Origin: a virus
Virus record (IMG/VR): IMGVR_UViG_3300027763_000026
Direction: 5' to 3' (one strand)
Length of the DNA: 64,000 bases
A program made the translations under genes and the position numbers. Numbering within the stretch: the first letter of the stretch is position 1; every line of letters starts with the position of its first letter. Under the pieces are notes generated by a model that searched no databases, was not told the DNA's origin, and saw only the letters and a program-made list of their open reading frames with translations. Below, piece by piece: positions 45,887 through 60,138 of this stretch.

Positions 45887-46221
45887 TCTGATGGTATTAC
45901 ACCTGATACAAGAAGCATATATAAAAAGAGATATATAAAAAAATAGGTTCCTGGATTTTTTTACTTTGGTTTATTTATGATTTTAAATGATTTTATATAG
46001 ATTTTAAAAAAGGGGGGGGTATAAAGAGATAGATTATAGATATATATATTGATTTATTATATAGAATAATAGATTATTGTTATTGGGGAGAATGATTTTG
46101 CTCCCCCCGCGAGTGTTTAGTCTGAAAAATTGATTCGATTTTTTCAAAAATGGGGTACCTAATGATAGGTTTATGTCTATAAGTCGTTACCTATCAATGA
46201 AATTTAACTTGAAGATATCTC

Positions 46222-46249
46222 TTGTACCTTTCCTATAATATGATAGACT
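46222..46249 (+). promoter_or_regulatory. Sigma70-like early promoter
   Basis: TTGTAC-N16-(TGA)TAGACT, ATG 8 nt downstream. Confidence 0.65.
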
Positions 46250-46257
46250 ACTCTTAT

Positions 46258-46431
46258 ATGAAAAACAAATTGAGTAAGTTCGAAACCCTGTTAGCTAACC
46301 TTGAGAAAGCCTCTGCGAATCACGCTAAGGCTTGCGAGTCTTTCCTTAAAGTCTCTGAGGCGTACTCCTCTAAGCGTGCGGAGATGCTTAAGATATACGA
46401 GCCTAGTGACCTTCACCACGCTTGCGAATAA
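46258..46431 (+). CDS. Small coiled-coil early protein, paralog of 47393..47605
   Basis: MKNKLSKFETLLANLEKAS; start placed by the promoter. Confidence 0.7.
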   Translation: MKNKLSKFETLLANLEKASANHAKACESFLKVSEAYSSKRAEMLKIYEPSDLHHACE

Positions 46432-46470
46432 CCATTGACACAACCAATCGAAAAGGATAATATAACCACT

Positions 46471-46890
46471 ATGAAAAACCAACTAAACATCACTAAACAA
46501 TCATTCGGCGATACAACTGCTTTCCTCTTGGAAGGTGGCAAAGGTCGCATCACCTCGTTCCACAATGCCCTATACAACTGGGGTGCAACCAATGGGCAGT
46601 TGCACGATATGGGTAACGGCAAAGCGTTTTACTTCTACGCTAACCCCGACGCAGTGCTACACGCTCTCGTTAAGATTGCTCTGCACTCCTTATGCAATAA
46701 GATCAACGCAAAGGGAATGAAGGGCGGATTGATGAGCCTTGCGAAGATCAAGGCACAAGGTCAATTCGATAACATCATTGACGGGCGATTCCTCAGTGCC
46801 TCTGTCTCTAATGATACCTACGGATTCGGTACGATCACAGCAGAGAAACCTAGTGACTACTGCGGTGCAGTCAGTAACGGAAGGGACTAA
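46471..46890 (+). CDS. Hypothetical early protein, paralog of 52777..53163
   Basis: Shared FHN..YNWG.TNG and GTI.AEK motifs. Confidence 0.75.
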   Translation: MKNQLNITKQSFGDTTAFLLEGGKGRITSFHNALYNWGATNGQLHDMGNGKAFYFYANPDAVLHALVKIALHSLCNKINAKGMKGGLMSLAKIKAQGQFDNIIDGRFLSASVSNDTYGFGTITAEKPSDYCGAVSNGRD

Positions 46891-46894
46891 TAGT

Positions 46895-47272
46895 ATGACA
46901 GCAGAACTATTCATCGTAGCATTAACAATCCTTGGTGAAGCGAGGGGTGAAACCTTCGAGGGTATGGCAGGTGTTGCTAGTGTGATACAGACACGCACCA
47001 TAGAGCGTAAGCAAACGCCTAGCCAAGTGTGCCTATCGCCTAAGCAATTCAGCTTCTGGAATGGTGGAGTAAGTGAAGCCACCAAGAAGAAGCTACTGGC
47101 AACAGCACAAGGCAAGAACGCTCTATACCTTGCTGATCTAGTCATCCATAAACAGATGCCAGACATCGTGAAGGGTGCAAACCATTACCACGCCGTCAGC
47201 GTCGCTCCTAAGTGGGCTAGGGACACAAGGCTAGTAGCTACAATACGCAACCACAAGTTTTATAAGTTGTAA
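46895..47272 (+). CDS. Cell wall hydrolase, SleB/Hydrolase_2 family
   Basis: LTILGEARGE..GM..VA.VI..R...QFS.WN...ANHYHA..P.W...I.NH.FY. Confidence 0.85.
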   Translation: MTAELFIVALTILGEARGETFEGMAGVASVIQTRTIERKQTPSQVCLSPKQFSFWNGGVSEATKKKLLATAQGKNALYLADLVIHKQMPDIVKGANHYHAVSVAPKWARDTRLVATIRNHKFYKL

Positions 47273-47358
47273 GTAGCTGAATACCAAAGACTTGTAGGAG
47301 GGCCCTCCCTTGCGTTGTAACTCCTTGATGGTCAATGAAATTTAAATGAAGAAATATG

Positions 47359-47386
47359 TTGCATTTCTTCTGAAATATGCTAAACT
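47359..47386 (+). promoter_or_regulatory. Sigma70-like early promoter, leaderless
   Basis: TTGCAT-N16-(TGC)TAAACT-N6-ATG. Confidence 0.75.
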
Positions 47387-47392
47387 GTATCT

Positions 47393-47605
47393 ATGAATAA
47401 GAAATTAACCAAGTATGAAATCCTAATCGCAAATCTCGAAAAAGCCTCTGCTGACTTAAAAAAAGCTAGCGAAGAATCTCAAAAAAGATTGAATGAAAGT
47501 TTCGCAAAATATCAAGAAAAAGTTTCAGTCGCTCATCATAACTCTATGATGGTCAACGAAAAACAAATTGAAGAAATCACTTGCAATTCCGCTGAAATAT
47601 GCTAA
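47393..47605 (+). CDS. Small coiled-coil early protein
   Basis: MNKKLTKYEILIANLEKAS. Confidence 0.7.
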   Translation: MNKKLTKYEILIANLEKASADLKKASEESQKRLNESFAKYQEKVSVAHHNSMMVNEKQIEEITCNSAEIC

Positions 47606-47658
47606 ACTATACTTATAACAATAAAAGATAACAAATAACAAAGAAAGAAAAAAATAAA

Positions 47659-47931
47659 ATGACTCATAGAATGATAAATTGGAATTTTCACCGCAAACAA
47701 ATGCGTGAAAATATGCGTAAAAATACGGATTCTTCTGAATCCATAATCACTAACTCTAACAATACACCAACATACTTTGGTGAAATATACCTTTACGAAG
47801 GAACTCTAGTAAAAGTTTCTTACAAAACTTCTGCAAATACTGCGGTTGTAACCTTCCTTGAAGGTATAGACAAAGATAAGGTTGGAACTATCAACCTTAA
47901 CAATGCTAAACTAGTAAAGGAAAATAAATAA
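47659..47931 (+). CDS. Hypothetical early protein
   Basis: ORF track; preceded by TTGCAA-N16-TAAACT at 47581-47608. Confidence 0.6.
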   Translation: MTHRMINWNFHRKQMRENMRKNTDSSESIITNSNNTPTYFGEIYLYEGTLVKVSYKTSANTAVVTFLEGIDKDKVGTINLNNAKLVKENK

Positions 47932-48120
47932 ATGAATAACGATAATAAAAAACAATTAACTTCCCAAGAATGGGAAATTCAACGTTGGGAAAATAACAAC
48001 AAGAAATGGGCTAGACTCAAAAAAAGTTGGTCTGATTGGAAAAAGAATAATCCTGAAAAGGCTAAAGCTCACGCCTTACTAAAGGCAAAACTTAATGGAA
48101 AAAGTCCTAAGTCGTTGTAA
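47932..48120 (+). CDS. Hypothetical early protein
   Basis: ORF track; stop codon lies within the palindrome at 48107. Confidence 0.6.
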   Translation: MNNDNKKQLTSQEWEIQRWENNNKKWARLKKSWSDWKKNNPEKAKAHALLKAKLNGKSPKSL

Positions 48121-48183
48121 GTCAACGAAATTTAACTAAAGAAATAGCTTGCAAAAAACTCAATCTGTGATAAACTAAATAGT

Positions 48184-48462
48184 ATGAAAGATAAAGAAAT
48201 GAAAAACATAATAGAAACCCTCGTAGTGGGTAAATACTACCAAATCCAAAACCATATCGCAATCTGCGAGATGCTCAATTCAACCTCTAACAAAAAATGC
48301 CTTTCCAGAATCTCTGGTGTTGGAAGTGTCCTAGCTTTTTATGATGAAGTGACCGAAGTCGAAATGACTCCAGAACTTCTTAAAGAGTGTGAAGCTCGAA
48401 AGAATGGAACGATGAACTTCATTGGAAGTTTCAACGCATCCTCAAAATATAAAGGAGACTAA
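48184..48462 (+). CDS. Hypothetical early protein
   Basis: TTGCAA-N16-TAAACT-N7-ATG promoter at 48149-48176. Confidence 0.7.
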   Translation: MKDKEMKNIIETLVVGKYYQIQNHIAICEMLNSTSNKKCLSRISGVGSVLAFYDEVTEVEMTPELLKECEARKNGTMNFIGSFNASSKYKGD

Positions 48463-48600
48463 ATGAAAAAGATTCTTTTCAAACTAAATAAAAAAACTTA
48501 TAGGCTCGCTATGAAAAATGGTGAACAGAAAAACTTTTTGCGAGAGAGATTTTTTTACTACATCTCTGCGGGTTGTTTGAATCTTCGAGACCTCTTGTAA
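48463..48600 (+). CDS. Small hypothetical protein (not in ORF track)
   Basis: Manually read 45-aa ORF; TAA falls in the GTAAG arm of the palindrome at 48597. Confidence 0.4.
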   Translation: MKKILFKLNKKTYRLAMKNGEQKNFLRERFFYYISAGCLNLRDLL

Positions 48601-48748
48601 GTCTCTAAGCATCAACGACTTGCAAGCGCAGGGAGGTGCCCCGCGCAAGTCCTTAACTATCAACGACTTGCAAAGATTAGATTTTCTACTATCTTTTTTT
48701 TCTAAAAATAAACCTTGCGCTAAAGTTAATCTGTGATATATTCTAACT

Positions 48749-48913
48749 ATGAGAAACGAAATCACATCCCTAGCGACGGAAACCTGCGAGGAAACCTATG
48801 TGGACGCTAATGCGTTCTTTGACTACATCAATTCCAATGATGTGGTCAACTCAATGCTCGATGCGTTGTCTGGAGTCTATGACTCCAACGAAACTCTTGT
48901 GGAGGTCGTCTAA
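48749..48913 (+). CDS. Small acidic hypothetical protein (not in ORF track)
   Basis: MRNEITSLATETCEETYVD..., 54 aa; TTGCGC-N16-TATATT-N6-ATG promoter at 48715-48742. Confidence 0.7.
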   Translation: MRNEITSLATETCEETYVDANAFFDYINSNDVVNSMLDALSGVYDSNETLVEVV

Positions 48914-48914
48914 T

Positions 48915-49199
48915 ATGGACTACAAAGCGTCTCTCAAGGAATGGATGAGCCAGCATATGCTGGGTGTGCTAGATGTGCGTGATATCTTGAAAGATATTCG
49001 TGAGGAGAATATGGCTAACAATATTGTGCATCGGTCTTACTCTGAGCAAAGTGACCCTCTTATCATTGGCTCTTCAGAATCATCTTGTGAACCTGATGAG
49101 TCGATGGATGGTGATCACGATTCAGCTATGGCTTCTGCTGGCCACGGCACTGATGAGGACTATGGTTACTTCGGCGATCCAGAAATTTGTGGAGAATAA
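48915..49199 (+). CDS. Acidic hypothetical protein with DESMDGDHDSAMASAGHGTDEDYG motif
   Basis: Start moved to ATG 48915, 1 nt after the previous stop. Confidence 0.7.
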   Translation: MDYKASLKEWMSQHMLGVLDVRDILKDIREENMANNIVHRSYSEQSDPLIIGSSESSCEPDESMDGDHDSAMASAGHGTDEDYGYFGDPEICGE

Positions 49200-49201
49200 T
49201 T

Positions 49202-49297
49202 ATGGAAATTTTTTTAACCTGTGTTTGGGCATACTTTGGTTTGGTTTTTGTGCAATTAATTTATGCTTTAATAAGGTCAATTATAGAGCGTCGCTAA
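49202..49297 (+). CDS. 31-aa single-TM peptide
   Basis: MEIFLTCVWAYFGLVFVQLIYALIRSIIERR; TAA within the palindrome at 49294. Confidence 0.5.
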   Translation: MEIFLTCVWAYFGLVFVQLIYALIRSIIERR

Positions 49298-49377
49298 GTC
49301 TCTAAGTATCAACGACTTACACCGCAGGGCAGCGAATTTTTGTAAATCCTTGAATATCAAAGACTTACAAAATTTTA

Positions 49378-49527
49378 TTACATACTCGCTCGCCAACCTT
49401 CAAACACTTCGTCAATCTCTCTCTGTCTTTGCACAAAATTTTTGTTTGTGTCGAGTGGAGGATTATCAGAATCGTTCCAAGGATAAAAAGATTCTAAGTT
49501 TTCGTTTAATAGTTTTTCTATGTTCAT
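49378..49527 (-). CDS. Small hypothetical protein
   Basis: MNIEKLLNENLESFYPW..., shorter start than in the ORF track. Confidence 0.5.
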   Translation of the reverse strand: MNIEKLLNENLESFYPWNDSDNPPLDTNKNFVQRQREIDEVFEGWRASM

Positions 49528-49591
49528 TGTTTTTTTAATAATAAAATTGTGATTATAATTCCCACTAGAATTGTTATGAGCATAACTCATC

Positions 49592-50227
49592 TTAATGCTT
49601 TTTATAGTCGATTGCAAACTCATTTTTGTCCCAACACTTTCGACAATCGCCGCACTTGTTGCCTTGCTTAGAAGATGGGCAGTTAAAGTTTCCTAGCTTG
49701 CTCGCACCGCTAACGCACAAGCCAAGGCGTTGTGCAATTCCTACTGGTGCGGGGCCATCCATCATCAGAGCAGACAAACGGATGGTAAGATTGCTAGGCA
49801 CTTCACCGCCTTTTTCAATATAGGTTGAGACAAAGGCATACTCTCTTGTGGGCAACCAAAAAGAAATATGCGGAAGATTCTTTGCAATCTTCACAATCTT
49901 TTCAATATGCCACACGCCTTGCAAGTCTCCTGAATCGTGCCACCTGAAATGTGGATTCTTAACCTTGCCGATTAAATAAGTCATAGCATCTACCCACAAA
50001 TCATTGGTAAGAGAAGCGAAACGCTTTTCCATAGCTTTCTGAACATTGGGGAAAACATAACGCCCTTTAAGGGCGTAGCAAAAAGCACAAATGCTTCCTA
50101 CAACATTCCGCATTTTCTGCCCAATAAGACAACGCTTTGCGGGTGTTGAATAAGCAAATCCTGGCATCTTCGAAGGTTTTGAGAGTGTTCCGACAATCTC
50201 CTCGGCTTGTTTTTTGTTTTTGAACAT
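49592..50227 (-). CDS. Gp88-like Cys-rich phage protein (possible Fe-S / radical-SAM-like)
   Basis: LSKPSKMPG..C...C.FCYA.KG.Y..FRWHDSGD..FWLPTRE..C...KC..CR.CW; leaderless promoter TTGCAT-N16-TAAGCT-N5-ATG. Confidence 0.75.
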   Translation of the reverse strand: MFKNKKQAEEIVGTLSKPSKMPGFAYSTPAKRCLIGQKMRNVVGSICAFCYALKGRYVFPNVQKAMEKRFASLTNDLWVDAMTYLIGKVKNPHFRWHDSGDLQGVWHIEKIVKIAKNLPHISFWLPTREYAFVSTYIEKGGEVPSNLTIRLSALMMDGPAPVGIAQRLGLCVSGASKLGNFNCPSSKQGNKCGDCRKCWDKNEFAIDYKKH

Positions 50228-50355
50228 AAGAAAGCTTAACATAAATTAAGTTTGATGCAAGTTTTTTTACCATTTAAATCTCACTGATAGTCAACGACTT
50301 GCAACCGCAGGGAGGGTGCTTGCGTAAGTCTTTAATACTTAAGCACTTGCAACTC

Positions 50356-51186
50356 TTAATAATTCATATGCAATTCTTCACTGTCTTTTTTATCAAGGAA
50401 AGCGTCAAATCTTTTTTGTGCTTTGCTAGAAGCTGAGATAATAAAGTTCATGTCTTTCTTTAATACTCCCAGCCAGTTGGAGAGATAGCTGGCAGAATTG
50501 TTGAAACATTTTTCAGAATCAATTCCGCAGAAGTTAAGACAGAGGCTAGCAAAAATCTCTGCGGTCAATTCTTCTTTGCTATAATTCTGAGAACCAAAAC
50601 CATTTTTGATATCGTCGCTGGTGCTTTTATGCATAGCGTGACCAATCTCGTGAAATGCTGTGGAATAATACTCTTCAACGCTGTTGAAATTTTCTTTCAA
50701 AGGCAAATCAATCTTGTGATCTTGTGGATAGTAACAGGCACGACTGCCACCATACTTAATCTGAATCACGCACTTCTTAATCAACTTCTCTGCTTCTTCT
50801 ATTGGTGAAAATTCTAACTTAGGAGTCTCTGGTTGCTTCCATTTGATTCCCTCGACATCGCTCAACCCAAAAACTTTATAATATCTCATCATCGGGAAAG
50901 TTCTGGTCAATTCATTCTTAGCTTCTGTCTGCAGTAATTTATAGTAAACTACCATGTGAGATTTTGCACCAGCTTTGATCCTTCCGCCTAGTTCCTTGAT
51001 CTGATTAAATGTAAAAAAGAAATCGTCAGAGGAAACCATCCGAAGCAAAAATTGATTGATGCCTCTGTAATTCTTTTTTGAAACGCCGTTGCAAATTTCA
51101 AATACTTTCCAAGGCTTCTGCCAAGGGCATACTCCTTTGTTGAGGGCTTCGATGAACTTTTCTGTGATAATTTCGTTTACTTTCAT
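50356..51186 (-). CDS. ardC: ArdC-like antirestriction protein (ssDNA-binding N-terminus plus zincin-like domain)
   Basis: PWQKPW..YRGIN..FFTFNQ..GG.IK.G.K; YYST.FHEIGH; YSKEELTAE. Confidence 0.88.
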   Translation of the reverse strand: MKVNEIITEKFIEALNKGVCPWQKPWKVFEICNGVSKKNYRGINQFLLRMVSSDDFFFTFNQIKELGGRIKAGAKSHMVVYYKLLQTEAKNELTRTFPMMRYYKVFGLSDVEGIKWKQPETPKLEFSPIEEAEKLIKKCVIQIKYGGSRACYYPQDHKIDLPLKENFNSVEEYYSTAFHEIGHAMHKSTSDDIKNGFGSQNYSKEELTAEIFASLCLNFCGIDSEKCFNNSASYLSNWLGVLKKDMNFIISASSKAQKRFDAFLDKKDSEELHMNY

Positions 51187-51343
51187 AGCTTAAATATATC
51201 AGTTTTTTTCTTTTTGTCTACTAATAAATCTCACTGACCATCAAGGACTTAGAACTACAGGGAGGTTGCTTTTGCAACTTGTTGGTGTAGAATAACTTAC
51301 ATACTATAAAAACTTTTGTGTAATATACTTTGCAGTTTATTAT

Positions 51344-51541
51344 ATGAGTGATAATATTAAACAAGATATGGATCGCATATTGAGCCATTCATTATTATAT
51401 AAAAACTTCTTAAGCGAAAGAGAAGAAATCTTAAAACACAAATGGCTCGAAAGTGAAAAAGCTGGTAAAGATATTGGTTTTGAAAAAGCTTTATTAAGTT
51501 GGGTTTGTTACCACAGAGATAAGTGGCGTAATAAAAGATAA
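51344..51541 (+). CDS. DUF4032-like small protein
   Basis: EREEILKHKWLESEKAGKDIGFEKALLSW; plus-strand GTGTAA at 51318. Confidence 0.75.
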   Translation: MSDNIKQDMDRILSHSLLYKNFLSEREEILKHKWLESEKAGKDIGFEKALLSWVCYHRDKWRNKR

Positions 51542-51545
51542 ACTA

Positions 51546-51706
51546 TACTCGATGGTGTTGGACGCTACCCCCAACTCGTCTACGCCTTTCGGCTCAGACA
51601 GAAATCTTTGGATGATAGTCTCCTAAAGTTGTTTCTGTTGCGTGTCTCCAGTTTCTACCTAAGTTATTATTGCAAACTCACAGCTACCACGCCGATCCAT
51701 CAAGTA
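51546..51706 (-). ncRNA. Candidate structured ncRNA with tRNA-like closing
   Basis: 10-bp terminal helix, several internal hairpins including GCC-GAAA-GGC, own promoter TTGACT-N16-TACCAT at 51753-51726, no ATG at +1. Confidence 0.6.
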
Positions 51707-51755
51707 ATAGAAAAGAACTATCTGTATGGTATCATAACTAAACTATAAGTCAAAT

Positions 51756-51783
51756 AAAAAAGGCGAGGATTTTACTCCTCGCC
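51756..51783 (-). terminator. Intrinsic terminator
   Basis: GGCGAGGA/TCCTCGCC hairpin plus U6 on the minus strand. Confidence 0.8.
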
Positions 51784-51824
51784 CTTTCTATATGAAGGGG
51801 TGAATAAGCCCCATCTCTCTATTG

Positions 51825-52091
51825 TTAGACTGGCGAGAGACCACCAGCGATTCGATCATAGCGGAATTGCTTCACGCCAGAATCCATACGACCAGAAAAG
51901 CAGAAGCTAGTGAATAGCTTATTCCCTGCCTTGCTGATGGTATGAGAAGAAGGCTTGCTGATGATGTAGGTATAAACATCATCCTTGCCGTAAGGTTTGT
52001 ATTCGATTAAATACCTTTTCCCCAAGAGGAAAAGGACGAAGTGTTTCAGATATGAGGTTGCGTATATGATTGCGTTTTTGATTTTGTTCAT
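51825..52091 (-). CDS. Hypothetical early protein
   Basis: TTGTTA-N16-TATATT-N5-ATG at 52124-52097 places the start at 52091. Confidence 0.7.
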   Translation of the reverse strand: MNKIKNAIIYATSYLKHFVLFLLGKRYLIEYKPYGKDDVYTYIISKPSSHTISKAGNKLFTSFCFSGRMDSGVKQFRYDRIAGGLSPV

Positions 52092-52224
52092 ACTTAAATA
52101 TACCACAGCTTTGTTTTTTAACAAGAAATATCTTTAGTTAAATCTCGTTGACCATCAACGACTTACGATTCGAGGGAGGGCGCTTTTGCAACTCTTTGTG
52201 CGCCAGATACTTATAACAGTTTAA

Positions 52225-52386
52225 TTATTCTTCTGTCTCTTTCCAATTAGGATGAGATTTAGACCATTTAGCGAAAACAACTTCTAGATTATTTAGAAAC
52301 TTTTCTATTTCAGCAATAAGTTTTGGATCTTCATCTTTTAAGATTTGTCTTTCCAATATTTTACTTAATCTATTTTGGTGTTTCAT
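52225..52386 (-). CDS. Small hypothetical protein (not in ORF track)
   Basis: MKHQNRLSKILERQILKDEDP..., 53 aa. Confidence 0.5.
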   Translation of the reverse strand: MKHQNRLSKILERQILKDEDPKLIAEIEKFLNNLEVVFAKWSKSHPNWKETEE

Positions 52387-52616
52387 ATCTACTATATATT
52401 ACATCTATTTGCTATTAATATCAATTAAATTCTATTTGTATAATTATTAATTGTTTTTTTATTTAAGATGTGTAATAACTATTTTAATCAGCGATTCTAT
52501 TGCGCTCGAGCTAATCACAAACATTATTGTTAAAATTAAAAATTCTGGAAAATATTTAACAAAAAAGTTATTCACATAATGGCTTACATTTTATTTATTA
52601 TTTAGAGAAAATAATT

Positions 52617-52690
52617 CGCTCCTAGCAGGAATCGAACCTGCAACCTACAGTTTAGAAAACTGTTACTCTATCCAGTTGAGTTATAGGAAC
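52617..52690 (-). tRNA. trnR: tRNA-Arg(UCU)
   Basis: Cloverleaf; anticodon arm ACAGT-TTTCTAA-ACTGT; T-arm GCAGG-TTCGATT-CCTGC; no encoded CCA. Confidence 0.92.
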
Positions 52691-52701
52691 GACATTTTAC
52701 T

Positions 52702-52774
52702 TCGCCTAGGTCAGACTCGAACTGACACTTGAACGATTTTAAGTCGTTTTTCTCTGCCATTGGAATACTAGGCG
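52702..52774 (-). tRNA. trnL: tRNA-Leu(UAA) with short variable loop
   Basis: CGCCTAG/CTAGGCG acceptor, A73, AACGA-CTTAAAA-TCGTT, 5-nt variable loop. Confidence 0.88.
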
Positions 52775-52776
52775 AA

Positions 52777-53163
52777 TCAACTATCAGTATCTAGCTTTTC
52801 AGCAGAGATTGTTCCAAGAGAATAGAAGTCTTGAGATTGTGCTGTATGCATAAAAGATTCTACTGGAATGTTCGCAATCGCAGTTTTCATTCTGTGCATC
52901 GCAACCGCTTTCATCCCGCCCTTCTTTCCTCTAAACTTTTTACCAAGCTTATCAGTCATTCCATTAAGCATATACTTAAACATAACTCGCTCCAACTTTT
53001 CCATAGTAATCCAAAAATATCCAAAGCTAGCACTCATCCATTGAATACTTCCGTTTGTGCCACCCCAATTATATATGCGGTTGTGAAACTGCTCAATGTC
53101 CTCTACTTTACCTTTCATTCCAATAACCCAATGTGCTCCAAGATTTTGTTTAATTAATGTCAT
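52777..53163 (-). CDS. Hypothetical early protein, paralog of 46471..46890
   Basis: FHNRIYNWGGTNG..GTISAEK; TTGACA-N16-TAAACT-N6-ATG. Confidence 0.75.
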   Translation of the reverse strand: MTLIKQNLGAHWVIGMKGKVEDIEQFHNRIYNWGGTNGSIQWMSASFGYFWITMEKLERVMFKYMLNGMTDKLGKKFRGKKGGMKAVAMHRMKTAIANIPVESFMHTAQSQDFYSLGTISAEKLDTDS

Positions 53164-53289
53164 AGTTTTAGTTTATCCTATCTTTGTTTGTTGTCAATTC
53201 TTTTTGTTTGAAATACCAATCTACATCTTCTTGAGTTGTTTCGGTATACTTGCTATAAGAGTTAAGCATCCAATCCGCACAAGGAGAAG

Positions 53290-53361
53290 TGGGCAAGGCT
53301 GGACTCGAACCAGCACTAGGAGCATTATGAGTACTCTGTTTCACCTTTAAACTACTTGCCC
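53290..53361 (-). tRNA. tRNA with CAU anticodon, probably Ile2 (elongator Met not excluded)
   Basis: GAGTA-CTCATAA-TGCTC arm; G1:C72 paired and no GGG/CCC anticodon stem, so not an initiator. Confidence 0.88.
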
Positions 53362-53553
53362 CACTTTAGAAGGAAAGCTGGAAGGTTTCGGCACTTGGAA
53401 AAACTCTACTGCAAAAGCCTTGGAGATGTTCTCCAAATCTTTGAGTGAGCAAGTTTCCTTGGGCGTACACATACGGATTGCTGAGTTTAGGATAACGGCT
53501 CGGTCTTGACCGAACACATTCATCACATAGAATGGTGCTGTTTGTTTTGTCAT
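53347..53553 (-). CDS. Hypothetical early protein; 3' end overlaps the CAU tRNA
   Basis: TTGACA-N16-TATTCT-N6-ATG at 53587-53560. Confidence 0.6.
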   Translation of the reverse strand: MTKQTAPFYVMNVFGQDRAVILNSAIRMCTPKETCSLKDLENISKAFAVEFFQVPKPSSFPSKVGQVV

Positions 53554-53616
53554 AATGTAAGAATACCACAACTTGAGTTTTTGTCAATAAAAGAATCTCG
53601 TTGACTATCAGTAACT

Positions 53617-53707
53617 TACTAGAGGTAGGATTCGAACCTACATTACGCTCAAATCTAGAGCTTCACGAATATAAATCGTGGGTCTTAACCAGTTAGACGA
53701 CTCTAGT
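53617..53707 (-). tRNA. tRNA with UAU anticodon (Ile) and long variable arm
   Basis: ACTAGAG/CTCTAGT acceptor, CACGA-TTTATAT-TCGTG, 22-nt variable region with GCTC/GAGC stem, GTAGG-TTCGAAT-CCTAC. Confidence 0.85.
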
Positions 53708-53728
53708 ATGTAGTGTCAGCCTCCGAAG

Positions 53729-53887
53729 TTACTCGCCAATTTTCTTAATCACTACTTTTGTTCCGTCTGGCCAACGCTTGATGATTTCTCTCCAATGGTT
53801 TGCCTCGACTTCTGCTTCTGCTTGGCTGTTGTGCATATCGTAACTAACCCGAATACCATCTCTCAAAACAATATACTTAACATTCAT
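53729..53887 (-). CDS. Small hypothetical protein (not in ORF track)
   Basis: MNVKYIVLRDGIRVS...WPDGTKV, 52 aa, overlaps the upstream gene end. Confidence 0.6.
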   Translation of the reverse strand: MNVKYIVLRDGIRVSYDMHNSQAEAEVEANHWREIIKRWPDGTKVVIKKIGE

Positions 53888-54113
53888 TTTCTACCTCCAT
53901 TACTACTGAGTTGTCAAATAATGAGCCACCATCTACTGCGTCACAGATAACAATATCATTACTGCCATCGTCACCAGCATAGACGGCTCGGAGTTTCTTT
54001 ACTTGACTATGTTTAATGTTTGTCCATTTACTTTCTGGAATGCCAAGGACTTGCAGAGCCTCGACTCTCTCTGGTGAAAGTGCTTCACCGCTTACTGAAC
54101 ATTTGTATGTCAT
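53877..54113 (-). CDS. Hypothetical protein, weak DksA/TraR-like C..GE.L..ER.EAL motif
   Basis: TTGACA-N16-TAGTAT-N6-ATG. Confidence 0.65.
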   Translation of the reverse strand: MTYKCSVSGEALSPERVEALQVLGIPESKWTNIKHSQVKKLRAVYAGDDGSNDIVICDAVDGGSLFDNSVVMEVENEC

Positions 54114-54117
54114 AACT

Positions 54118-54504
54118 TTATACTACTACTAATTCTGTTTTTGTCAAATCAATTTTACGAGGTCGGCCACGACCACGCTTCTCGCCATTAGCCAAAGTCG
54201 ATGTCGCAACATAAGCTGATAGTTTTTCTTTTAATTGGACGAATCGCTTGTCTGCATCTTCACGATTAGTACAAGTGAATGCCCAATCGCCCCATTGACT
54301 ATCGGATGGATACATTTCAGCAGGAGGCATCTTGACACCTGCAATCTCGTAACCATTGTGGCGTTTGATAGCGATAACTTCGTAGTTAAAAGCCTCGCTG
54401 TCTACTTCATCAAGTTGCTTTTTATAGATTGCAACATCGCCATCACGCCCAACCATCGTGAACTTAAAGCCTCTGCTAGTAAATGTTTCTTCAAGAATTT
54501 TCAA
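54118..54504 (-). CDS. Hypothetical protein with C-terminal AT-hook (KRGRGRPRK)
   Basis: TTG start; AT-hook visible in the translation. Confidence 0.7.
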   Translation of the reverse strand: MKILEETFTSRGFKFTMVGRDGDVAIYKKQLDEVDSEAFNYEVIAIKRHNGYEIAGVKMPPAEMYPSDSQWGDWAFTCTNREDADKRFVQLKEKLSAYVATSTLANGEKRGRGRPRKIDLTKTELVVV

Positions 54505-54649
54505 TTTTTACTCCTTCTGGAAGCCAACCCTTGATGTCGAGTCCGTCTCCGATATAACCAACTTGCATTTCACTTTTAGTTTTGGGGTCTACTGCATAAA
54601 TAGCGTAGCCACCTTCAGCGAGTTTTTTGATTTTAGTTATGTTGTCCAT
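54491..54649 (-). CDS. Small hypothetical protein (not in ORF track)
   Basis: MDNITKIKKLAEGGYAIY..., 52 aa; TTGAAT-N16-TATAAT-N6-ATG. Confidence 0.65.
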   Translation of the reverse strand: MDNITKIKKLAEGGYAIYAVDPKTKSEMQVGYIGDGLDIKGWLPEGVKIENS

Positions 54650-54674
54650 CTAAAGATTATACTATACTTTCTTT

Positions 54675-55016
54675 TTAATTCAAGACAAATATATCACGAT
54701 TAATAACTCCAACCCATTTTGCTTTATATACTGGCTCAAGGTTATCAGCATAAACAAAGCTATTATACTTATAAGGATTGTAGGTAACTTTTCTTTCTAC
54801 TTGATCTACTGGCCAACCATCATCTGGCGTACCACAAACAAAAGCATGGACATTCTTTCTTTGTTCTTTTAAAACCCTGGAACGACCTGCTTGACTCACC
54901 CTAAACTCAACATCTTTAAGAAAGAATTCTGTGCTATGCTGTAATACTTTTCCTTTAAGCATAATAGAAAGACACTTCTTATGTAAATTATAATAAACCT
55001 TATGTTTTGCTTTCAT
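54675..55016 (-). CDS. Conserved hypothetical phage protein (Y.NLHK..S..KNVHAFV.G family)
   Basis: Recognisable motif; TTGACA-N16-TATAGT-N6-ATG. Confidence 0.75.
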   Translation of the reverse strand: MKAKHKVYYNLHKKCLSIMLKGKVLQHSTEFFLKDVEFRVSQAGRSRVLKEQRKNVHAFVCGTPDDGWPVDQVERKVTYNPYKYNSFVYADNLEPVYKAKWVGVINRDIFVLN

Positions 55017-55148
55017 CTCATAACTATAACATAAATAATATAAATGTCAAGCCATGTAAACCTTTGATAGATAAGGAGTTGCAAAAGCGGATTGCCCCCG
55101 CGCGTAACTCCTTGATAATCAGAGACTTATGCATGATGCAATTTGAGC

Positions 55149-55177
55149 AAAAAGAAGCGGAGGGTTTTGCCCTCCGC
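55149..55177 (-). terminator. Intrinsic terminator after the DUF932 gene
   Basis: GCGGAGGG/CCCTCCGC hairpin plus U-tract. Confidence 0.8.
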
Positions 55178-55200
55178 CTCTGTTAAAGTTTCGTTTTAGT

Positions 55201-56058
55201 TTAGGCGACTAACTTCAAAAGCTCTTCGTCGCGGGTTTTTCCGCTGAAGACTTTGAGCAAGTCAGTGCTGACCCTCTCGCTATACTCATACCGCTCATCC
55301 GCAACGTTACGAGTCAGGAACTGCGTAGTAGCGTTGTAGAGGTTGTACAAGTTGCGATCATGATCCGCCTCGTAAGAGGGATTGCGCCAAACTGCTTCGA
55401 TGCCTTCGCGCACCTTAGCAGAGATCACGCTCTTCTCTTCCAACTTGGTGAGTAAGGTCAAACCCTGCTCATCAGTGATTGCTCTCTGCGCCAACCTGTT
55501 GAAGATTGCCACAGAGTTGTCAACGCTGGAGATTGCATTCGCCAACGCATCACCAATGAAATCCAGATTAACGGCGAGGGTGTGCCTCTTCGTCATGCTG
55601 AACTCCTTGGTCAACGACTTCATTCCGTTCAAACAAACCAAACGGAGGAAACCAAGCGAGAGGGAGACACGACTGGAGCGATCATAACTGTTGTTCACAG
55701 TTAATCTCAAACCAAGCACATCACCAACTGCACGCTTGCCAACTGGCTTCAACTGAGTTTTAAACTCAGGGAAGTCATAGCTAGCATAGAAACGGGATCC
55801 ATCACGAACCACAAACTTTTTGGAGCTGTGATTAGCGAGCATACTGTTCTGCGCTAGCGACTCTTCGACCATCGTCACGAGGTCTGCATTCTTCACCACA
55901 CCATACTGCTCGGTGCAAACTCCGAGCGTCATGGGTTCGGGGGTATCACGGCGTACCATCCCGAAGTATCCTGTCCTCTTGCCGTCTGTTGTGAGGAGTG
56001 GCTCTTGGTGTACATCGAAATCGTATACACTTTGAGCGGGTTTTGTTGTTCTAGCCAT
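55201..56058 (-). CDS. DUF932/DUF945-family protein
   Basis: Y.VV.N.DL..NSYDRSS..LG.LRLVC.NGM..RHT..N.YNLYNA.TQF; TTGTCA-N16-TATGAT-N6-ATG. Confidence 0.82.
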   Translation of the reverse strand: MARTTKPAQSVYDFDVHQEPLLTTDGKRTGYFGMVRRDTPEPMTLGVCTEQYGVVKNADLVTMVEESLAQNSMLANHSSKKFVVRDGSRFYASYDFPEFKTQLKPVGKRAVGDVLGLRLTVNNSYDRSSRVSLSLGFLRLVCLNGMKSLTKEFSMTKRHTLAVNLDFIGDALANAISSVDNSVAIFNRLAQRAITDEQGLTLLTKLEEKSVISAKVREGIEAVWRNPSYEADHDRNLYNLYNATTQFLTRNVADERYEYSERVSTDLLKVFSGKTRDEELLKLVA

Positions 56059-56241
56059 ATGTTAATCATACCACACTTTTAAAGTATGACAAGAACTTTT
56101 TTCATGTCATAAGATTCTGATAATCATGGAGTTGCCAATCCTGTGAAAGTTTTTTTAGGATTGTTGTAACTGCTTATTCATTAAGGACTTGCAGCGCGGC
56201 GCGGGGCCCCAACGTAAATATATAATAAACAACAACTTATG

Positions 56242-56694
56242 TCAAACCAAATTTAATTTATAATTACCTTTTCTATACTCTCTTACTTTTCTTTTAGCAT
56301 ATAAAGAGGCATCTACTTCACATAATTTAGCTCGTGTACCCATGTTATATTTTCTTATCTTTTTTATACCATGAAAGAACTTATTCTTTTTATATTGATA
56401 TAAGTGTCTTAATTCATGAGCAATTAATTCAATTAAACCTTCTTCCCAGCTATATGTTTCAACATTAAGATAGCCTCTTCTGCCTCCAGTATTATATGGT
56501 CTAAGATACTTGCCATATCTAGGCACACCAATATGCACTCTCATGCTACCCCAAGCCCTGCCATGCCAATTTAATTTAGTATTACCAAAATCTATTTTAC
56601 GGATGTCTTTAAGGAATACGCCTTCTGGCATACACCATTTAATAATTTCTTTTAACTTTTCAGAACAATAAGAGGTGCTATTGATTAACTTCAT
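56242..56694 (-). CDS. SprT-like/zincin motif protein (AHELRH)
   Basis: HExxH motif with downstream E.DA; TTGACA-N16-TATTAT-N6-ATG. Confidence 0.65.
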   Translation of the reverse strand: MKLINSTSYCSEKLKEIIKWCMPEGVFLKDIRKIDFGNTKLNWHGRAWGSMRVHIGVPRYGKYLRPYNTGGRRGYLNVETYSWEEGLIELIAHELRHLYQYKKNKFFHGIKKIRKYNMGTRAKLCEVDASLYAKRKVREYRKGNYKLNLV

Positions 56695-56985
56695 CTACCC
56701 ATAATATAGTAAATTAAAATTATGTCAATCATCATTTATCATATCACTTAATAATATCAAAGGAAATAATAAAAAAAATAAAACTATATTAACTAGACTC
56801 TTTAGTATCTTCACTATCTCTTATTACACTATTATCTATTTCATATTTAGCTAATAGTAATTCATCAAATGATATTACTGGTTTCTCTGTTAGTATTTCA
56901 ATGCAAAATAAGTTATTCATTGTAGCTAAAGTATATATAAATAGCAAAAGCAATACTTAATATAATAGCAAAAATTAAAGGTGCA

Positions 56986-57141
56986 TTACTCATTAATCCA
57001 TCTTAATAGATGATCTAGTTCATGAATTGCACTTTCTAATTCATCTACTGCACTTTGATTATTATTATGCTCAACCATGAGGACTTTATATTCATCAATC
57101 CTGTCACTGATTTCTTTTGCAATTTCCTCACTCGACTTCAT
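56986..57141 (-). CDS. Small hypothetical protein
   Basis: MKSSEEIAKEISDRID..., start moved; overlaps the upstream gene end. Confidence 0.55.
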   Translation of the reverse strand: MKSSEEIAKEISDRIDEYKVLMVEHNNNQSAVDELESAIHELDHLLRWINE

Positions 57142-57367
57142 CTTCGTCCTCCTCTTCTTCCTCGACATCAATAGCTTCGAAGTTATAATCAACCTCATCC
57201 CACTCAAGGGCAAAGCCATTAGCATCAGTACAATTCTCGGCCATCTCTGTTGCTTTATCAACCGCTTCCTCATCTGATGTGGCCTCCACCTCGATGTCCA
57301 CTTCTGCGATTTGGTTGCGTTGCATACGAATCGTGAATTTCTTTAGGGGTTTTTCGATGTTGTTCAT
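57128..57367 (-). CDS. Highly acidic small protein
   Basis: D/E-rich; TTGACA-N16-TATATT-N6-ATG. Confidence 0.7.
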   Translation of the reverse strand: MNNIEKPLKKFTIRMQRNQIAEVDIEVEATSDEEAVDKATEMAENCTDANGFALEWDEVDYNFEAIDVEEEEEDEDEVE

Positions 57368-57404
57368 AGTTTTAATATACTCCTTTTATATTTATTGTCA
57401 ATTA

Positions 57405-57614
57405 TTATTCGCCTTCAACTAATAAAATTAAACTATTAGCTTCTTCCATAGCTAGTTCAGTTTGATATTCATATTCTGCTTTCTTAATTTCTTTGTGATG
57501 ATAAGAATAATATAAATCAGTTAATTCGCTTAATAGCTTAAAGGCTTCTACTTTAGCTTCTGTTTCTGTATAGTAAGGTTGAGCAGTTTCAGGATTAATC
57601 ATTGGTGAGTTCAT
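57405..57614 (-). CDS. Hypothetical early protein
   Basis: TTGACA-N16-TATAGT-N6-ATG. Confidence 0.7.
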   Translation of the reverse strand: MNSPMINPETAQPYYTETEAKVEAFKLLSELTDLYYSYHHKEIKKAEYEYQTELAMEEANSLILLVEGE

Positions 57615-57649
57615 AGATTAACTATAAGATAAATTAAATTATTGTCAAA

Positions 57650-57928
57650 TTATATTTTGGCTAATTGACTTTGCCAGCTTTTATTAATCCATGCTAGTAT
57701 TTGATCTGACCAGTAACCACTTACTATTTGAAACAAATCTCTTTCGATTCTAATCCTATCAAAGCTATAATAGATATACTGATTAATTAAGTATGGTGCA
57801 TCACACGAACCTCTGGTAATATGATTAGTAGAAATAACATCTATCTTAATAGTAGTTAATGTTTTAGGAATAACTACTTTGATAGTTCCGCCAAGTGCTG
57901 TCTCGCCTATTTTGAATGTTTTAGTCAT
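57650..57928 (-). CDS. Hypothetical early protein
   Basis: TTGACA-N16-TATATT-N6-ATG. Confidence 0.7.
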   Translation of the reverse strand: MTKTFKIGETALGGTIKVVIPKTLTTIKIDVISTNHITRGSCDAPYLINQYIYYSFDRIRIERDLFQIVSGYWSDQILAWINKSWQSQLAKI

Positions 57929-57962
57929 AACTTAAATATAACTTAGATTATTATATTGTCAA

Positions 57963-58136
57963 TTATACTCTGCAAATAAATGGATGTTCGCTATCTAAAA
58001 TATCATTGGTTTCTCTATTAGCAAATAGTAATTTAGCTTGATAGAACTCATTATTACCTTCTAATATAGTTAAGTCACTATTTAATTGAGACTCATTCAT
58101 ATTATTTAGATTGTTTAGTAGTTCTTTATATGTCAT
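57963..58136 (-). CDS. Small hypothetical protein (not in ORF track)
   Basis: MTYKELLNNLNNMNESQLNSD...EHP, 57 aa. Confidence 0.6.
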   Translation of the reverse strand: MTYKELLNNLNNMNESQLNSDLTILEGNNEFYQAKLLFANRETNDILDSEHPFICRV

Positions 58137-58140
58137 AGTA

Positions 58141-58392
58141 TTAAACCCTTTCCCACTTCGCGCCCCATCTATTTAATGTATCTTTTGCTTCTTTGAATGT
58201 TTTGAAATAAGTATATTGAGTTGGTTCACAATGAGGAAACACTTGTTTAGCCATCCATACTTTCTTGTTTAGTAATTTTTTATTATACTCGCCAGTAAAC
58301 AAATAAGGATTGTTATTTACTACGCGATCTAAAATATAACAAAATATAGTAGGTTTATTTATATAGTCTGCTATGTATTTATATGTGGTCAT
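58141..58392 (-). CDS. Hypothetical early protein
   Basis: TTTACT-N16-TATATT-N6-ATG. Confidence 0.65.
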   Translation of the reverse strand: MTTYKYIADYINKPTIFCYILDRVVNNNPYLFTGEYNKKLLNKKVWMAKQVFPHCEPTQYTYFKTFKEAKDTLNRWGAKWERV

Positions 58393-58423
58393 CTAATAAA
58401 TATAACCTAAATTAAAAATAAGT

Positions 58424-58615
58424 AAAGAAAAGAAAGTTGGTTTCTGCGATACCAACAAACGCTCAAGGGATATATGGTAGTAGAGTTATTTCGCAATATC
58501 TACTACATCCAATCCTTGATCTAGGTGCGAAAGTTTCGTAGAAGGAACGGAAAAGATATACGGCGCCTCGCTCTTTTCCATTACATCCTCTCGCAACCGA
58601 GAGTTTGCCTTCTAC
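58424..58615 (-). ncRNA. Candidate multi-hairpin structured RNA ending in an intrinsic terminator
   Basis: 8-bp stem closing a 3-way junction, GCGA-capped long hairpin, terminal hairpin plus U-tract. Confidence 0.55.
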
Positions 58616-58625
58616 TATTACTATA

Positions 58626-58757
58626 TTACTTTGAATCTTCTTTCTTGTCAACTTCTATCTTTCCTCCGACCATCTCTTTAAAAATATTACCGAAAAAACA
58701 CAAAAGATTATTGCAATCGCCATAGTTTAGTTCTTTCTCCATTTGTTTCTTGCTCAT
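58626..58757 (-). CDS. Small hypothetical protein (not in ORF track)
   Basis: MSKKQMEKELNYGDC..., 43 aa; TATAAT 7 nt before the ATG. Confidence 0.45.
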   Translation of the reverse strand: MSKKQMEKELNYGDCNNLLCFFGNIFKEMVGGKIEVDKKEDSK

Positions 58758-58803
58758 ATGCTCTATTATACATCAAATACAACAGATTGTAGAACAAAAA
58801 AAA

Positions 58804-58971
58804 TTAGTTATCTAAAAAAATTTCTGACCATTTTTTATTTGGCAAAGCTTCTTGAACAACAAAGATCGCTGTACCAAGGGCTTTGTTGAACTCCTCGGAT
58901 CTTTGATCGTCTGGTATATCATTAGAATACCTTACCAAGTTTATTAATGATTTTAAAATTTTTTCATTCAT
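58804..58971 (-). CDS. Small hypothetical protein (not in ORF track)
   Basis: MNEKILKSLINLVRYSND..., 55 aa. Confidence 0.5.
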   Translation of the reverse strand: MNEKILKSLINLVRYSNDIPDDQRSEEFNKALGTAIFVVQEALPNKKWSEIFLDN

Positions 58972-59053
58972 AATAGTTGCGGTTTACGATACCACAAAAC
59001 GATTTGCTGTTAACGGAAGCAACCACCGATGACCAAAACCACCTCACCAAACT

Positions 59054-59404
59054 TTATGCGACATTTAACTCAACTTCAAGTTTTTTCGTTTTACCCATCC
59101 AAGGTTCTGGCATAATATGTTTAAGCCAATCTTGCATAGATGGAATAAAGCCCAAGTCCTCTGCTATGTGCTGTTCGCCAACCCAACGAGTAGGAATCTT
59201 TTTACCATTAGATAGTGTGATGGTATTACCAAATATCCTCTCACACATAAAGATACCTTCGGCGTGATGTCGTAAAGCACGATGGCGAAAGTCTGCCATC
59301 ATCATCTTACTCTCATCAAACCAATCGTGAATCTTCTGGTAATCTTCTGCTGAACCGCCCCACTTCTTTGCTGACGATAATGAATGGTGATATGGATTAG
59401 CCAT
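59054..59404 (-). CDS. DUF6915-like protein
   Basis: MANPYHHSLSSAKKWGG..IHDWFDESK..RHRALRHHAEGIF..E..FG..EQHIAEDLG.IPS..DWL. Confidence 0.8.
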   Translation of the reverse strand: MANPYHHSLSSAKKWGGSAEDYQKIHDWFDESKMMMADFRHRALRHHAEGIFMCERIFGNTITLSNGKKIPTRWVGEQHIAEDLGFIPSMQDWLKHIMPEPWMGKTKKLEVELNVA

Positions 59405-59922
59405 TAGAAACTCTCCTCACTAGTCCGAACCTCTTCTATCCTCTCATTGTATTCGAGATTCACCTTGCGACCAGCAACATCAAAGTGAAATGTTCCGTAA
59501 CTACCTTCGTTGATTTCCCAACCGCCGTGGCTTGCACCTAACTTATCATAACATATCTCTTCAATAATCTCTCTGACATTTCCTTCTGTGGCTTCTGTCT
59601 TGACTAGCTTTTTTGTCTTTTCATCCCATTTGTGATAGGATGTTTTAGCTGAACCTTTAACAATAACCTTATCAAGATATGCTTCGTCTATGCCCTTGCC
59701 ATTAGCGTCTGTATAATCTACTGATTCGATTTGTCCAGAGTCTCCGCAACCTTCAAAAGATACTTCAATAGAAGAGACTTTTGTTTGTGCTAGGGTATCG
59801 AATAATAGGTTAGCATGATACTTTACTCTATCTGCTTTCTTTAGTTGGTCTGCTTTAATTTGTGCCATGATGTCATCCATCTTTGGCAATTTGATTTTTT
59901 TAGATTTAGATGTTTTGCTCAT
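59404..59922 (-). CDS. DUF6878-like protein
   Basis: V.F.G.GDSGQIE...GWEINEGSYG.F.FDV; TTGCGT-N16-TATGCT-N6-ATG. Confidence 0.78.
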   Translation of the reverse strand: MSKTSKSKKIKLPKMDDIMAQIKADQLKKADRVKYHANLLFDTLAQTKVSSIEVSFEGCGDSGQIESVDYTDANGKGIDEAYLDKVIVKGSAKTSYHKWDEKTKKLVKTEATEGNVREIIEEICYDKLGASHGGWEINEGSYGTFHFDVAGRKVNLEYNERIEEVRTSEESF

Positions 59923-59947
59923 ATAAAGAGCATAACCGATATTCTAA

Positions 59948-60133: not shown

Positions 60134-60138
60134 ATTAT

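Follow-up and report, generated by a model that had tools for sequence, protein, structure and literature searches.

The sequence analysed here is a 64,000-nucleotide stretch of the IMG/VR virus record IMGVR_UViG_3300027763_000026 (hereafter, the window; positions are counted from its first letter), a portion of the genome of a large, AT-rich (~32% GC), uncultured tailed phage. We focus on a 27-bp palindrome that is repeated, mostly in pairs of fixed geometry, across an island of small genes at 46-56 kb, and that may well serve as the operator of one common regulator. The GC content of the island is 36-43%, as against 29-35% in its surroundings. Its genes include those for an ArdC-like anti-restriction protein (50356-51186), a DUF932 protein (55201-56058), a GP88-like protein (49592-50227) and an L5 gp82-like protein, in addition to a cell-wall hydrolase domain, four transfer RNAs (tRNAs) and many small uncharacterised genes. 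The large terminase gene lies outside the island, at 34697-36541 on the minus strand, and its product is ~25% identical to the terminases of Bacillus and Clostridium phages. A near-identity search of the 10.5-kb region against 50,697 phage records gave no match, and Rfam reported nothing in the region beyond the four tRNAs.

Copies of the palindrome were located with a symmetric weight matrix, which was made from the copies and scanned across the whole window. The matrix detects 21-22 copies, 21 of them with scores of 15-33 bits and every one within 46179-56240, and the background maximum in the remaining 54 kb is ~12 bits; with the strict consensus and at most three mismatches, five matches are found where 0.00 are expected. 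The copies form 13 loci in total, including eight pairs whose start-to-start distance is exactly 48 bp, corresponding to a 21-bp linker. The preliminary description of this stretch had reported 20 copies at 11 loci and none elsewhere. Its eight pairs are all recovered with the same spacing and the confinement to 46179-56240 stands, while the number of loci had to be raised because the single copies at 47538 and 56109 had been missed.

A typical unit consists, in the direction of transcription, of the end of the upstream gene, a full palindrome (the distal copy), the 21-bp GC-rich linker and a second, promoter-side copy with an A/T-rich outer arm, followed after 5 or 14-16 bp by a -35 box; a 16-bp spacer separates this box from the -10 box, which lies 6 bp before the ATG of the downstream gene. 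Single copies are always of the promoter-side kind, and in two pairs (48597 and 49294) both palindromes are full. The variant arm, which had been noticed on promoter-side copies, is indeed a discrete class, since positions 71, 72, 74 and 75 of the element are the only strongly covarying columns. The G-rich linker motif, said earlier to be frequent, occurs in six of the eight pairs (on the plus strand at 48597, 49294, 50276, 51226 and 52140, and on the minus strand at 47269) and is absent from the linkers at 55056 and 56166. Stop codons of upstream genes fall inside palindromes at 47270-47272, 48598-48600, 49295-49297 and 48118-48120, often as the invariant TAA at positions 2-4.

From left to right, the first element of the island is a single promoter-side copy with the variant arm at 46179-46205 on the plus strand (17.2 bits), with a -35 box 16 bp downstream and a leaderless ATG at 46258. 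The plus-strand promoter-linked pair at 47269-47343 comprises a distal copy at 47269-47295, the 21-bp linker and a promoter-side copy at 47317-47343 (23.7 and 23.5 bits); the stop codon of gene 46739-47272 occupies positions 2-4 of the distal copy, and the ATG at 47393 is preceded by a -35 box 15 bp downstream of the promoter-side copy. Two single promoter-side copies on the plus strand follow: one at 47538-47564 (15.7 bits; -35 box 16 bp downstream), within the 3' end of gene 47393-47605, and one with the variant arm at 48107-48133 (19.8 bits), which contains the stop of gene 47932-48120 and has its -35 box 15 bp downstream, before the ATG at 48184. The two pairs of full palindromes come next and are assigned to neither strand. 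The pair at 48597-48671 (30.7 and 33.3 bits) has a linker that is inverted relative to both flanking plus-strand genes; the stop of the 45-amino-acid gene 48463-48600 lies at its positions 2-4. At 49294-49368 (27.7 and 28.5 bits), a plus-strand and a minus-strand gene converge on a pair that is promoterless on both sides and has the best fold in the window (z = -7).

The remaining loci are on the minus strand. The promoter-linked pair at 50276-50350 (26.6 and 24.8 bits) lies between the ArdC-like and the GP88-like genes, with a -35 box ~15 bp past its promoter-side copy and the ATG at 50227. The promoter-linked pair upstream of the ArdC-like gene itself, at 51226-51300 (23.6 and 15.4 bits), has a -35 box 5 bp away and a leaderless ATG at 51186, and that at 52140-52214 (29.8 and 20.4 bits) has a -35 box 15 bp away and the ATG at 52091. 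A single promoter-side copy at 53593-53619 (25.1 bits; -35 box 5 bp away; ATG 53553) stands directly after a minus-strand tRNA gene (53616-53708, anticodon TAT). Note that this tRNA, at 93 nt, is unusually long for an Ile-type molecule, and that the palindrome copy begins inside its 3' end. The pair at 55056-55130 (21.5 and 30.4 bits), whose linker does not contain the conserved core described below, is flanked on one side by an ordinary intrinsic terminator (55181-55153) and on the other by the promoter of gene 54675-55016, the -35 box being 5 bp from the copy at 55056 and the ATG at 55016. Upstream of the DUF932 gene there is a single promoter-side copy at 56109-56135 (16.1 bits; -35 box 16 bp away; ATG 56058), and behind it the pair at 56166-56240 (23.9 and 12.6 bits), of which the weak copy, at 56214, overlaps a promoter-like site (56245-56217).

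Adjacency to a sigma70-like -35 box thus holds, as had been claimed: the box is found 5 or 14-16 bp beyond a copy at 10 of the 13 loci (46179, 47269, 47538, 48107, 50276, 51226, 52140, 53593, 55056 and 56109). As for the three others, the promoter next to 48597 is on its other side, at a distance of 43 bp; 49294, where the ends of two genes converge, has none; and 56166 lies upstream of 56109. The promoters themselves share a peculiar layout. For nearly every small gene in 46258-61463, the -35 box, a 16-bp spacer, the -10 box, exactly 6 bp and the ATG follow each other with no room for a ribosome-binding site (for example, at the minus-strand ATGs 55016, 56058, 56694, 57367, 57614, 57928 and 60321). 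This leaderless layout is used throughout, palindrome-free promoters included.

Relatives were collected by searching IMG/VR with the terminase of the window and by scanning for islands with the motif. The terminase retrieves 189 related IMG/VR stretches with 78-99% identity, and the element is kept in dozens of related uncultured phage contigs. A scan of viral contigs with a loose 14-base pattern returned mostly chance matches, which were filtered by the weight matrix. Seven other records (40-134 kb) each contain one island of 6-15 kb; they include phages whose terminases are only 41% and 56% identical to that of the window and whose GC content is 37-41%, and the half-site consensus is unchanged at this distance. 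When 596 Gb of prokaryote genomes were scanned with a paired-site pattern, 10 matches were found, which is about the number expected by chance; none of them has the palindrome according to the matrix, and they give no clue to the host. The motif is therefore not equally frequent elsewhere, being found in one island per record and as no true element in the prokaryote genomes, and at the sensitivity of the 596-Gb scan it appears to be confined to this phage group.

The most distinctive feature of the element, and the result we expected least, is that each genome keeps to one spacer length, which is not the same from genome to genome. Among 122 non-identical pairs in loci that hold at least three of them (152 pairs over all loci), 115 have the modal spacing of their own locus. 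The spacing is 48 bp in the window and in five relatives (in our numbering, L092, L123, L130, L143 and L181), 49 bp in L125 (seven of seven pairs), 50 bp in G004 (10 of 10), G007, L117, L165, L149 and L200, 51 bp in L115 and L175, and 52-54 bp in G005. The 48-bp pairing, whose conservation in relatives had been put forward as a check, stands as a rule of constancy within a genome and falls as a particular value. Linkers within one genome differ widely in sequence and keep their length and high GC content (69-84%), which makes homogenisation by gene conversion unlikely. In a comparison of only three genomes, the spacing class does not track the terminase, a 50-bp genome being 83% identical to the window and a 48-bp genome 78%; the island may move as a block between genomes. 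Linkers of the 48-bp class carry, at a fixed position, a nearly invariant and asymmetric five-base core, which is on the promoter-sense strand in 41 cases and on the opposite strand in four, and which is missing from the other spacing classes (the 49-52 bp lineages). A different arrangement occurs in some relatives (L093:2840-2930, L130:7205-7290 and 9690-9775, and L124:3700-3790), where back-to-back inverted elements lie 159-160 bp apart with two direct copies of an extra 28-bp box containing GATC between them; no such box was found in the window, even with up to eight mismatches allowed.

Promoter adjacency is also conserved in relatives, where 101 non-identical leaderless promoters have a copy upstream. 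The gap between the end of the copy and the -35 box is 5/6 bp in 28 of them, 15/16 bp in 59 and 26 bp in nine, so that the steps equal one helical turn and the centre of the site lies near -53, -63 or -74. Gaps of 5 and 15-16 bp recur in the few promoters scored from other spacing classes, together with some larger ones. A perfect -35 box is present in 3% of the promoters with a copy at 15/16 bp, as against 40% of copy-less promoters, and extended -10 boxes are frequent in the former. Copy-less promoters make up about half of the promoter-like sites in islands and also include the consensus promoters at 56.7-64 kb of the window; the site therefore marks a subset of transcription units.

Comparison with relatives also supports the earlier suggestion that cassettes are shuffled at the elements, which can be seen directly in the gene content. 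Blocks of homology between the window and its relatives begin and end at elements, with unrelated DNA between them. When the flanks of 120 elements are clustered, 50 upstream and 32 downstream types occur in 65 combinations, and a single downstream module is found next to 12 upstream contexts, in part by way of paralogues. For example, the promoter-side copy and flank at 51226 are identical to those at L088:1275, and the distal sides are unrelated. The orientation of an element flips along with that of the gene. In about ten comparisons in which the downstream side is the same and the upstream side unrelated, mismatches run through positions 1-48 and end at 43-48; accordingly, the distal copy and the linker belong to the upstream gene and the promoter-side copy to the downstream gene. 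Elsewhere the upstream flank keeps the entire element and the break falls past position 69, so that no single crossover point is seen.

At the level of single bases, invariant A/T positions of the palindrome are interleaved with free ones, and conservation peaks in the two inner half-sites that flank the linker. This base-specific pattern is most likely the signature of duplex DNA that is read by a protein. For the genome-fixed spacing, the simplest reading is that a trans-acting protein or complex spans both sites and sets the distance between them. Taking the sites, their conservation, their geometry and the exchange of cassettes together, we infer that the elements are operator pairs of one regulator controlling the ArdC/DUF932 island and that they also act as recombination joints, a reading to which we assign a probability of roughly 0.55. 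The 27-bp palindromes would be double-stranded operators for one sequence-specific protein, probably a dimer. The basic unit would be a promoter module, in which a copy with the A/T-rich outer arm is set in helical register upstream of a promoter of the host's sigma-70-like type, and this promoter would start the mRNA at the ATG. Many units would add a second, full palindrome across a GC-rich spacer of genome-fixed length; given this fixed length, it is probable that the protein (or two of its dimers in a complex) reaches across both sites and gauges how far apart they are. In this way, anti-restriction and other "establishment"-type genes (ArdC-like, DUF932 and others) would be placed under one common control. 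Because the same conserved sequence stands at every gene boundary, the elements would double as joints for the gain, loss and swapping of cassettes, most likely by homology-driven exchange. Binding of a protein at two sites of fixed geometry, as already proposed in the preliminary description, fits the phased promoter distances, the genome-specific spacing and the lack of covariation between pairing positions that is described below.

Several points weigh against the operator reading. The phasing counts overstate independence, since the modules are related by descent; there are about three module types, for which the chance of a shared phase is ~0.08, and this makes the phasing argument weaker. 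A spacing of 48 bp corresponds to 4.5 helical turns and would place two dimers on opposite faces of the DNA, which is unusual for cooperative binding, and the oriented core of the linker (41:4) is not explained by a symmetric dimer. The pair at 49294 is promoterless, so promoter control cannot be the only role. That the genes are transcribed early is deduced from the type of promoter only. Finally, Pfam searches of ~60 window proteins revealed no regulator and no DNA-binding fold for one, in agreement with the earlier statement that the window contains no identifiable candidate for a binding protein or recombinase, and HTH_3, RHH_1 and HU/IHF were not found in three relatives.

One alternative is that the protein-bound palindromes act mainly as boundaries or roadblocks, which stop or insulate transcription between cassettes, convergent genes included, and that any promoter effect is secondary. 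Insulation would matter where translation requires an mRNA that starts exactly at the ATG. Pairs do lie at the 3' ends of genes, and several stop codons fall on positions 2-4 of the distal copy; when cassettes are exchanged, this copy moves with the upstream gene, as does the linker; and the pair at 49294 lies without any promoter between convergent gene ends. Terminator-like sites number nine in comparison with 8.5 in shuffled sequences, and only 55181-55153 is listed next to an element. However, single copies are only of the promoter-side kind and are phased to the -35 box, the pair at 55056 is already preceded by an ordinary terminator, and the element at 48597 is inverted with respect to both flanking genes. 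We therefore regard a primary boundary function as unlikely.

The exchange of cassettes raises another alternative, namely an integron-like system of site-specific recombination, in which the four half-sites would be bound by a recombinase that exchanges strands at or close to the point where the spacer meets the promoter-side copy, giving precise excision and insertion of cassettes. Such a system would account for cassette contents that differ among relatives exactly at the elements, for the roughly ten comparisons whose mismatches stop at 43-48, for a spacer of constant length with an asymmetric and oriented core, and for the joint flipping of elements and genes. Against this, neither the resolvase family PF00239 nor the tyrosine integrase family PF00589 was found in three relatives of 100-118 kb (records 64-77% complete), and Pfam shows no recombinase family among the ~60 window proteins. 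The break points are not unique, some lying beyond position 69, a spacer of 21-26 bp fits no known core of a tyrosine or serine recombinase, the core motif is missing in the 49-52 bp lineages, and the cassettes carry their own promoters, with the single copies linked to promoters. Dedicated site-specific recombination is thus improbable: as there is no single crossover and the three relatives yielded no recombinase, exchange driven by the homology of a conserved repeat, which has been proposed for the PeSL elements considered below, is more likely. Similarly doubtful is the notion that the 75-80 bp unit is the site of a new lineage-specific machine for DNA bridging or strand exchange that co-evolves with the spacer length. 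If it were true, such a machine would regulate the anti-defence cassettes of a lytic phage and also move them physically, and would amount to an integron-like cassette system without any known recombinase.

We also consider it very unlikely that the functional form is a structured nucleic acid, whether as an RNA hairpin (a terminator, an RNase III-type processing site or a stabilising structure of the 3' untranslated region), a cruciform or a hairpin in single-stranded DNA. Each copy is near-palindromic, three window pairs with two full copies fold well in RNAfold (z = -2.3, -4.0 and -7.0), and the island contains genes typical of plasmid leading regions (ArdC, DUF932). However, among 70 non-identical elements of the 48-bp class, Watson-Crick pairs are, at every arm position, as frequent as the composition of the two columns predicts, whether the arms compared belong to one copy or to two, so that pairing of arms between copies, which the preliminary description had entertained along with cruciforms and hairpins, is not selected either. 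Pairing is seen at only ~67% of positions. At the variable pairs 5/23, 7/21, 8/20 and 11/17, changes on one side are not compensated on the other. Shuffling the elements with two full palindromes apart from the promoter-linked ones gives the same outcome, so that neither class shows compensatory change. The only signals in the mutual information come from the outer arm of the promoter-side copy, with its two alternative forms, and from effects of neighbouring bases. Mismatches comprise 73 G-U and 73 A-C combinations, which means that no strand is favoured as RNA. RNAfold gives five of the eight window pairs no advantage over shuffled sequences, and linker hairpins have z-scores of ~0, with no excess folding in any spacing class; the linker was accordingly rejected as a terminator hairpin, and the pair at 55056, being preceded by an ordinary terminator, is not itself one. 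Finally, the -35 and -10 boxes lie outside the palindrome, at a distance of 5-26 bp in an ordinary duplex arrangement, and not within a hairpin stem as in the Frpo and ssi single-strand promoters of plasmid leading regions.

That the element is merely a functionless or selfish promoter-containing repeat, spread by duplication and similar only through recent ancestry, is highly improbable: the promoter modules with the 15-bp distance do share a similar spacer sequence and hence common descent, but the base-by-base pattern holds in phages with terminase identities of 41-86% and GC contents of 29-41%, with neighbouring positions able to vary, and the spacer length is constant within genomes although its sequence varies.

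The elements resemble several known systems. The PeSL (promoter early stem-loop) elements of T4-type phages combine a short GC-rich terminator stem-loop with a host-type early promoter, and homology-driven exchange has been proposed for them (PMC2839356, PMC4122927). As with PeSLs, a composite element recurs here where small accessory genes of a hypervariable region adjoin, a promoter of the host sigma-70 type forms part of it (10 of the 13 window loci and 101 cases in relatives), and insertions, deletions or replacements between relatives fall at the elements. On the other hand, the present element is a 27-bp palindrome, usually doubled, in which pairing is not selected, and it does not contain a GC-rich stem-loop of the PeSL type; its base-specific conservation, phasing to the -35 box, genome-specific spacer length and leaderless mRNAs are further differences.

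A parallel in the logic of control is offered by Reg576 of plasmid p576, in which repeated operators precede ardC576 and other establishment genes and time their expression after DNA entry; the operator is a dual 7-bp direct repeat (TTATCCC), two dimers bind cooperatively, and the repressor, a ribbon-helix-helix protein, is encoded in the region (PMC6294495). In both systems one repeated operator stands before several promoters of entry or establishment genes, an ArdC gene among them, with one operator at some promoters and two at others, and with one just upstream of the -35 box. In the window, copies lie upstream of the ArdC-like, DUF932, GP88-like and L5 gp82-like genes and of several uncharacterised genes. 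The motif and its symmetry differ, a 27-bp palindrome taking the place of the TTATCCC heptamer; in addition, Pfam detects no repressor gene among the window proteins, a distance of 48-54 bp separates the two sites, cassettes are joined at the elements as well, and the carrier is a phage and not a plasmid.

The conserved upstream (CUP) repeats of the leading regions of IncN and IncW plasmids, acting with ArdK and KorA, are promoter-containing repeats upstream of anti-restriction genes; they are subject to common repressors and have been implicated in gene acquisition. They are several hundred base pairs long and do not contain a double palindrome. The likeness is by analogy, in that repeated promoter elements precede anti-restriction or leading-region genes, and no sequence relatedness is shown here. 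The comparison with PeSL and CUP elements made in the preliminary description is thus apt for how the element may work, although the element is a member of neither group. Integron attC sites are imperfectly palindromic as well; each marks the 3' end of a cassette and is recombined as a folded single strand, with structure conserved over sequence, by the IntI integrase, on cassettes that are mostly promoterless and co-oriented. The near-palindromic sites at cassette ends and the variable cassette content among relatives are alike, but here conservation concerns the sequence and not the pairing, most cassettes are preceded by a leaderless promoter of their own, both orientations occur, and PF00589 was not found in the three relatives (64-77% complete) or among the ~60 window proteins. 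The same difference applies to res- or hix-type sites with respect to PF00239, which is missing from the three relatives, with nothing of the kind detected by Pfam in the window. At deoP2-type promoters of Escherichia coli, two palindromic CRP sites ~50 bp apart (-41 and -93) flank an asymmetric element bound by CytR. This is an analogy of layout only, since the sites considered here would lie at about -53, -63 or -74 and 48 bp further upstream.

If the elements are operators, a half-site that stays the same between such distant phages calls for a binder that is either conserved among the phages or supplied by the host. By eye, the palindrome does not match the consensus sequences of FNR, Fur, loxP or sigma-54. 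The 45-amino-acid protein encoded at 48463-48600, which had looked like a CopG/Arc-type ribbon-helix-helix protein, was rejected, since AlphaFold2 predicts a two-helix hairpin with a mean local confidence score (pLDDT) of 73; it has neither a match to a PDB profile nor a Pfam match. Protein families present in most of the eight element-bearing records are a PhoH-like ATPase (eight of eight), a sigma-factor-like protein and its 364-amino-acid neighbour (seven of eight), and a Zn-ribbon protein, an ERCC4-type nuclease and a 62-amino-acid protein (six of eight). The sigma-factor-like protein (38561-39244, minus strand) has a match to Sigma70 region 2, a cysteine cluster and a helix-turn-helix-like C-terminal tail, and its gene is flanked on the same strand by those of the Zn-ribbon protein (39262-39696) and the 364-amino-acid protein (37470-38564), the latter matching only unnamed viral clusters. 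These three proteins may represent the phage's own transcription set. Also between the terminase and the island, on the minus strand, are the genes of the ERCC4/XPF-type structure-specific nuclease (36538-37473) and of the PhoH-like ATPase (41046-41771), the latter being the only family present in all eight records. Within the island, a 128-amino-acid protein (54118-54504, minus strand) has a C-terminal AT-hook (GRGRPRK) and might, from its sequence, bind the A/T-rich promoter arms in the minor groove.

Repeated operator or promoter cassettes in early regions of phages and establishment regions of plasmids are already known. What the present data add is a widespread lineage of large uncultured freshwater phages that appears to wire an anti-restriction or "establishment" island to one common control site, and in which the same sites appear to keep the island fluid by cassette swapping. 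Concepts developed for PeSLs and for the control of plasmid leading regions are thereby extended to a new group of phages, in which expression is leaderless. The genome-specific spacer length provides a route to the binder, as spacing classes can be matched to protein variants, and the classes allow the co-evolution between a DNA-binding complex and the geometry of its site to be studied.

Several other genes in and around the island deserve mention. DUF6915 and DUF6878 genes lie just outside it (59054-59922), and the set of ArdC-like, DUF932, DUF6915 and DUF6878 genes is typical of the leading regions of conjugative plasmids and integrative and conjugative elements; here it is found within a tailed phage. 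A plus-strand gene at 51344-51541 encodes 65 amino acids with a weak match to DUF4032 and is followed by a terminator (51762-51783), the surrounding cassettes being on the minus strand. Its start is 43 bp from the distal copy of the ArdC element, and some pairs may therefore serve divergent promoters. The most conserved family in the island is one of 139 amino acids, for which no relatives were found in PDB or Atlas; it has two paralogues in the window, at 46471-46890 on the plus strand and at 52777-53163 on the minus strand. The former overlaps the plus-strand frame of the cell-wall hydrolase (46739-47272) by ~150 nt, and both frames are kept in relatives.

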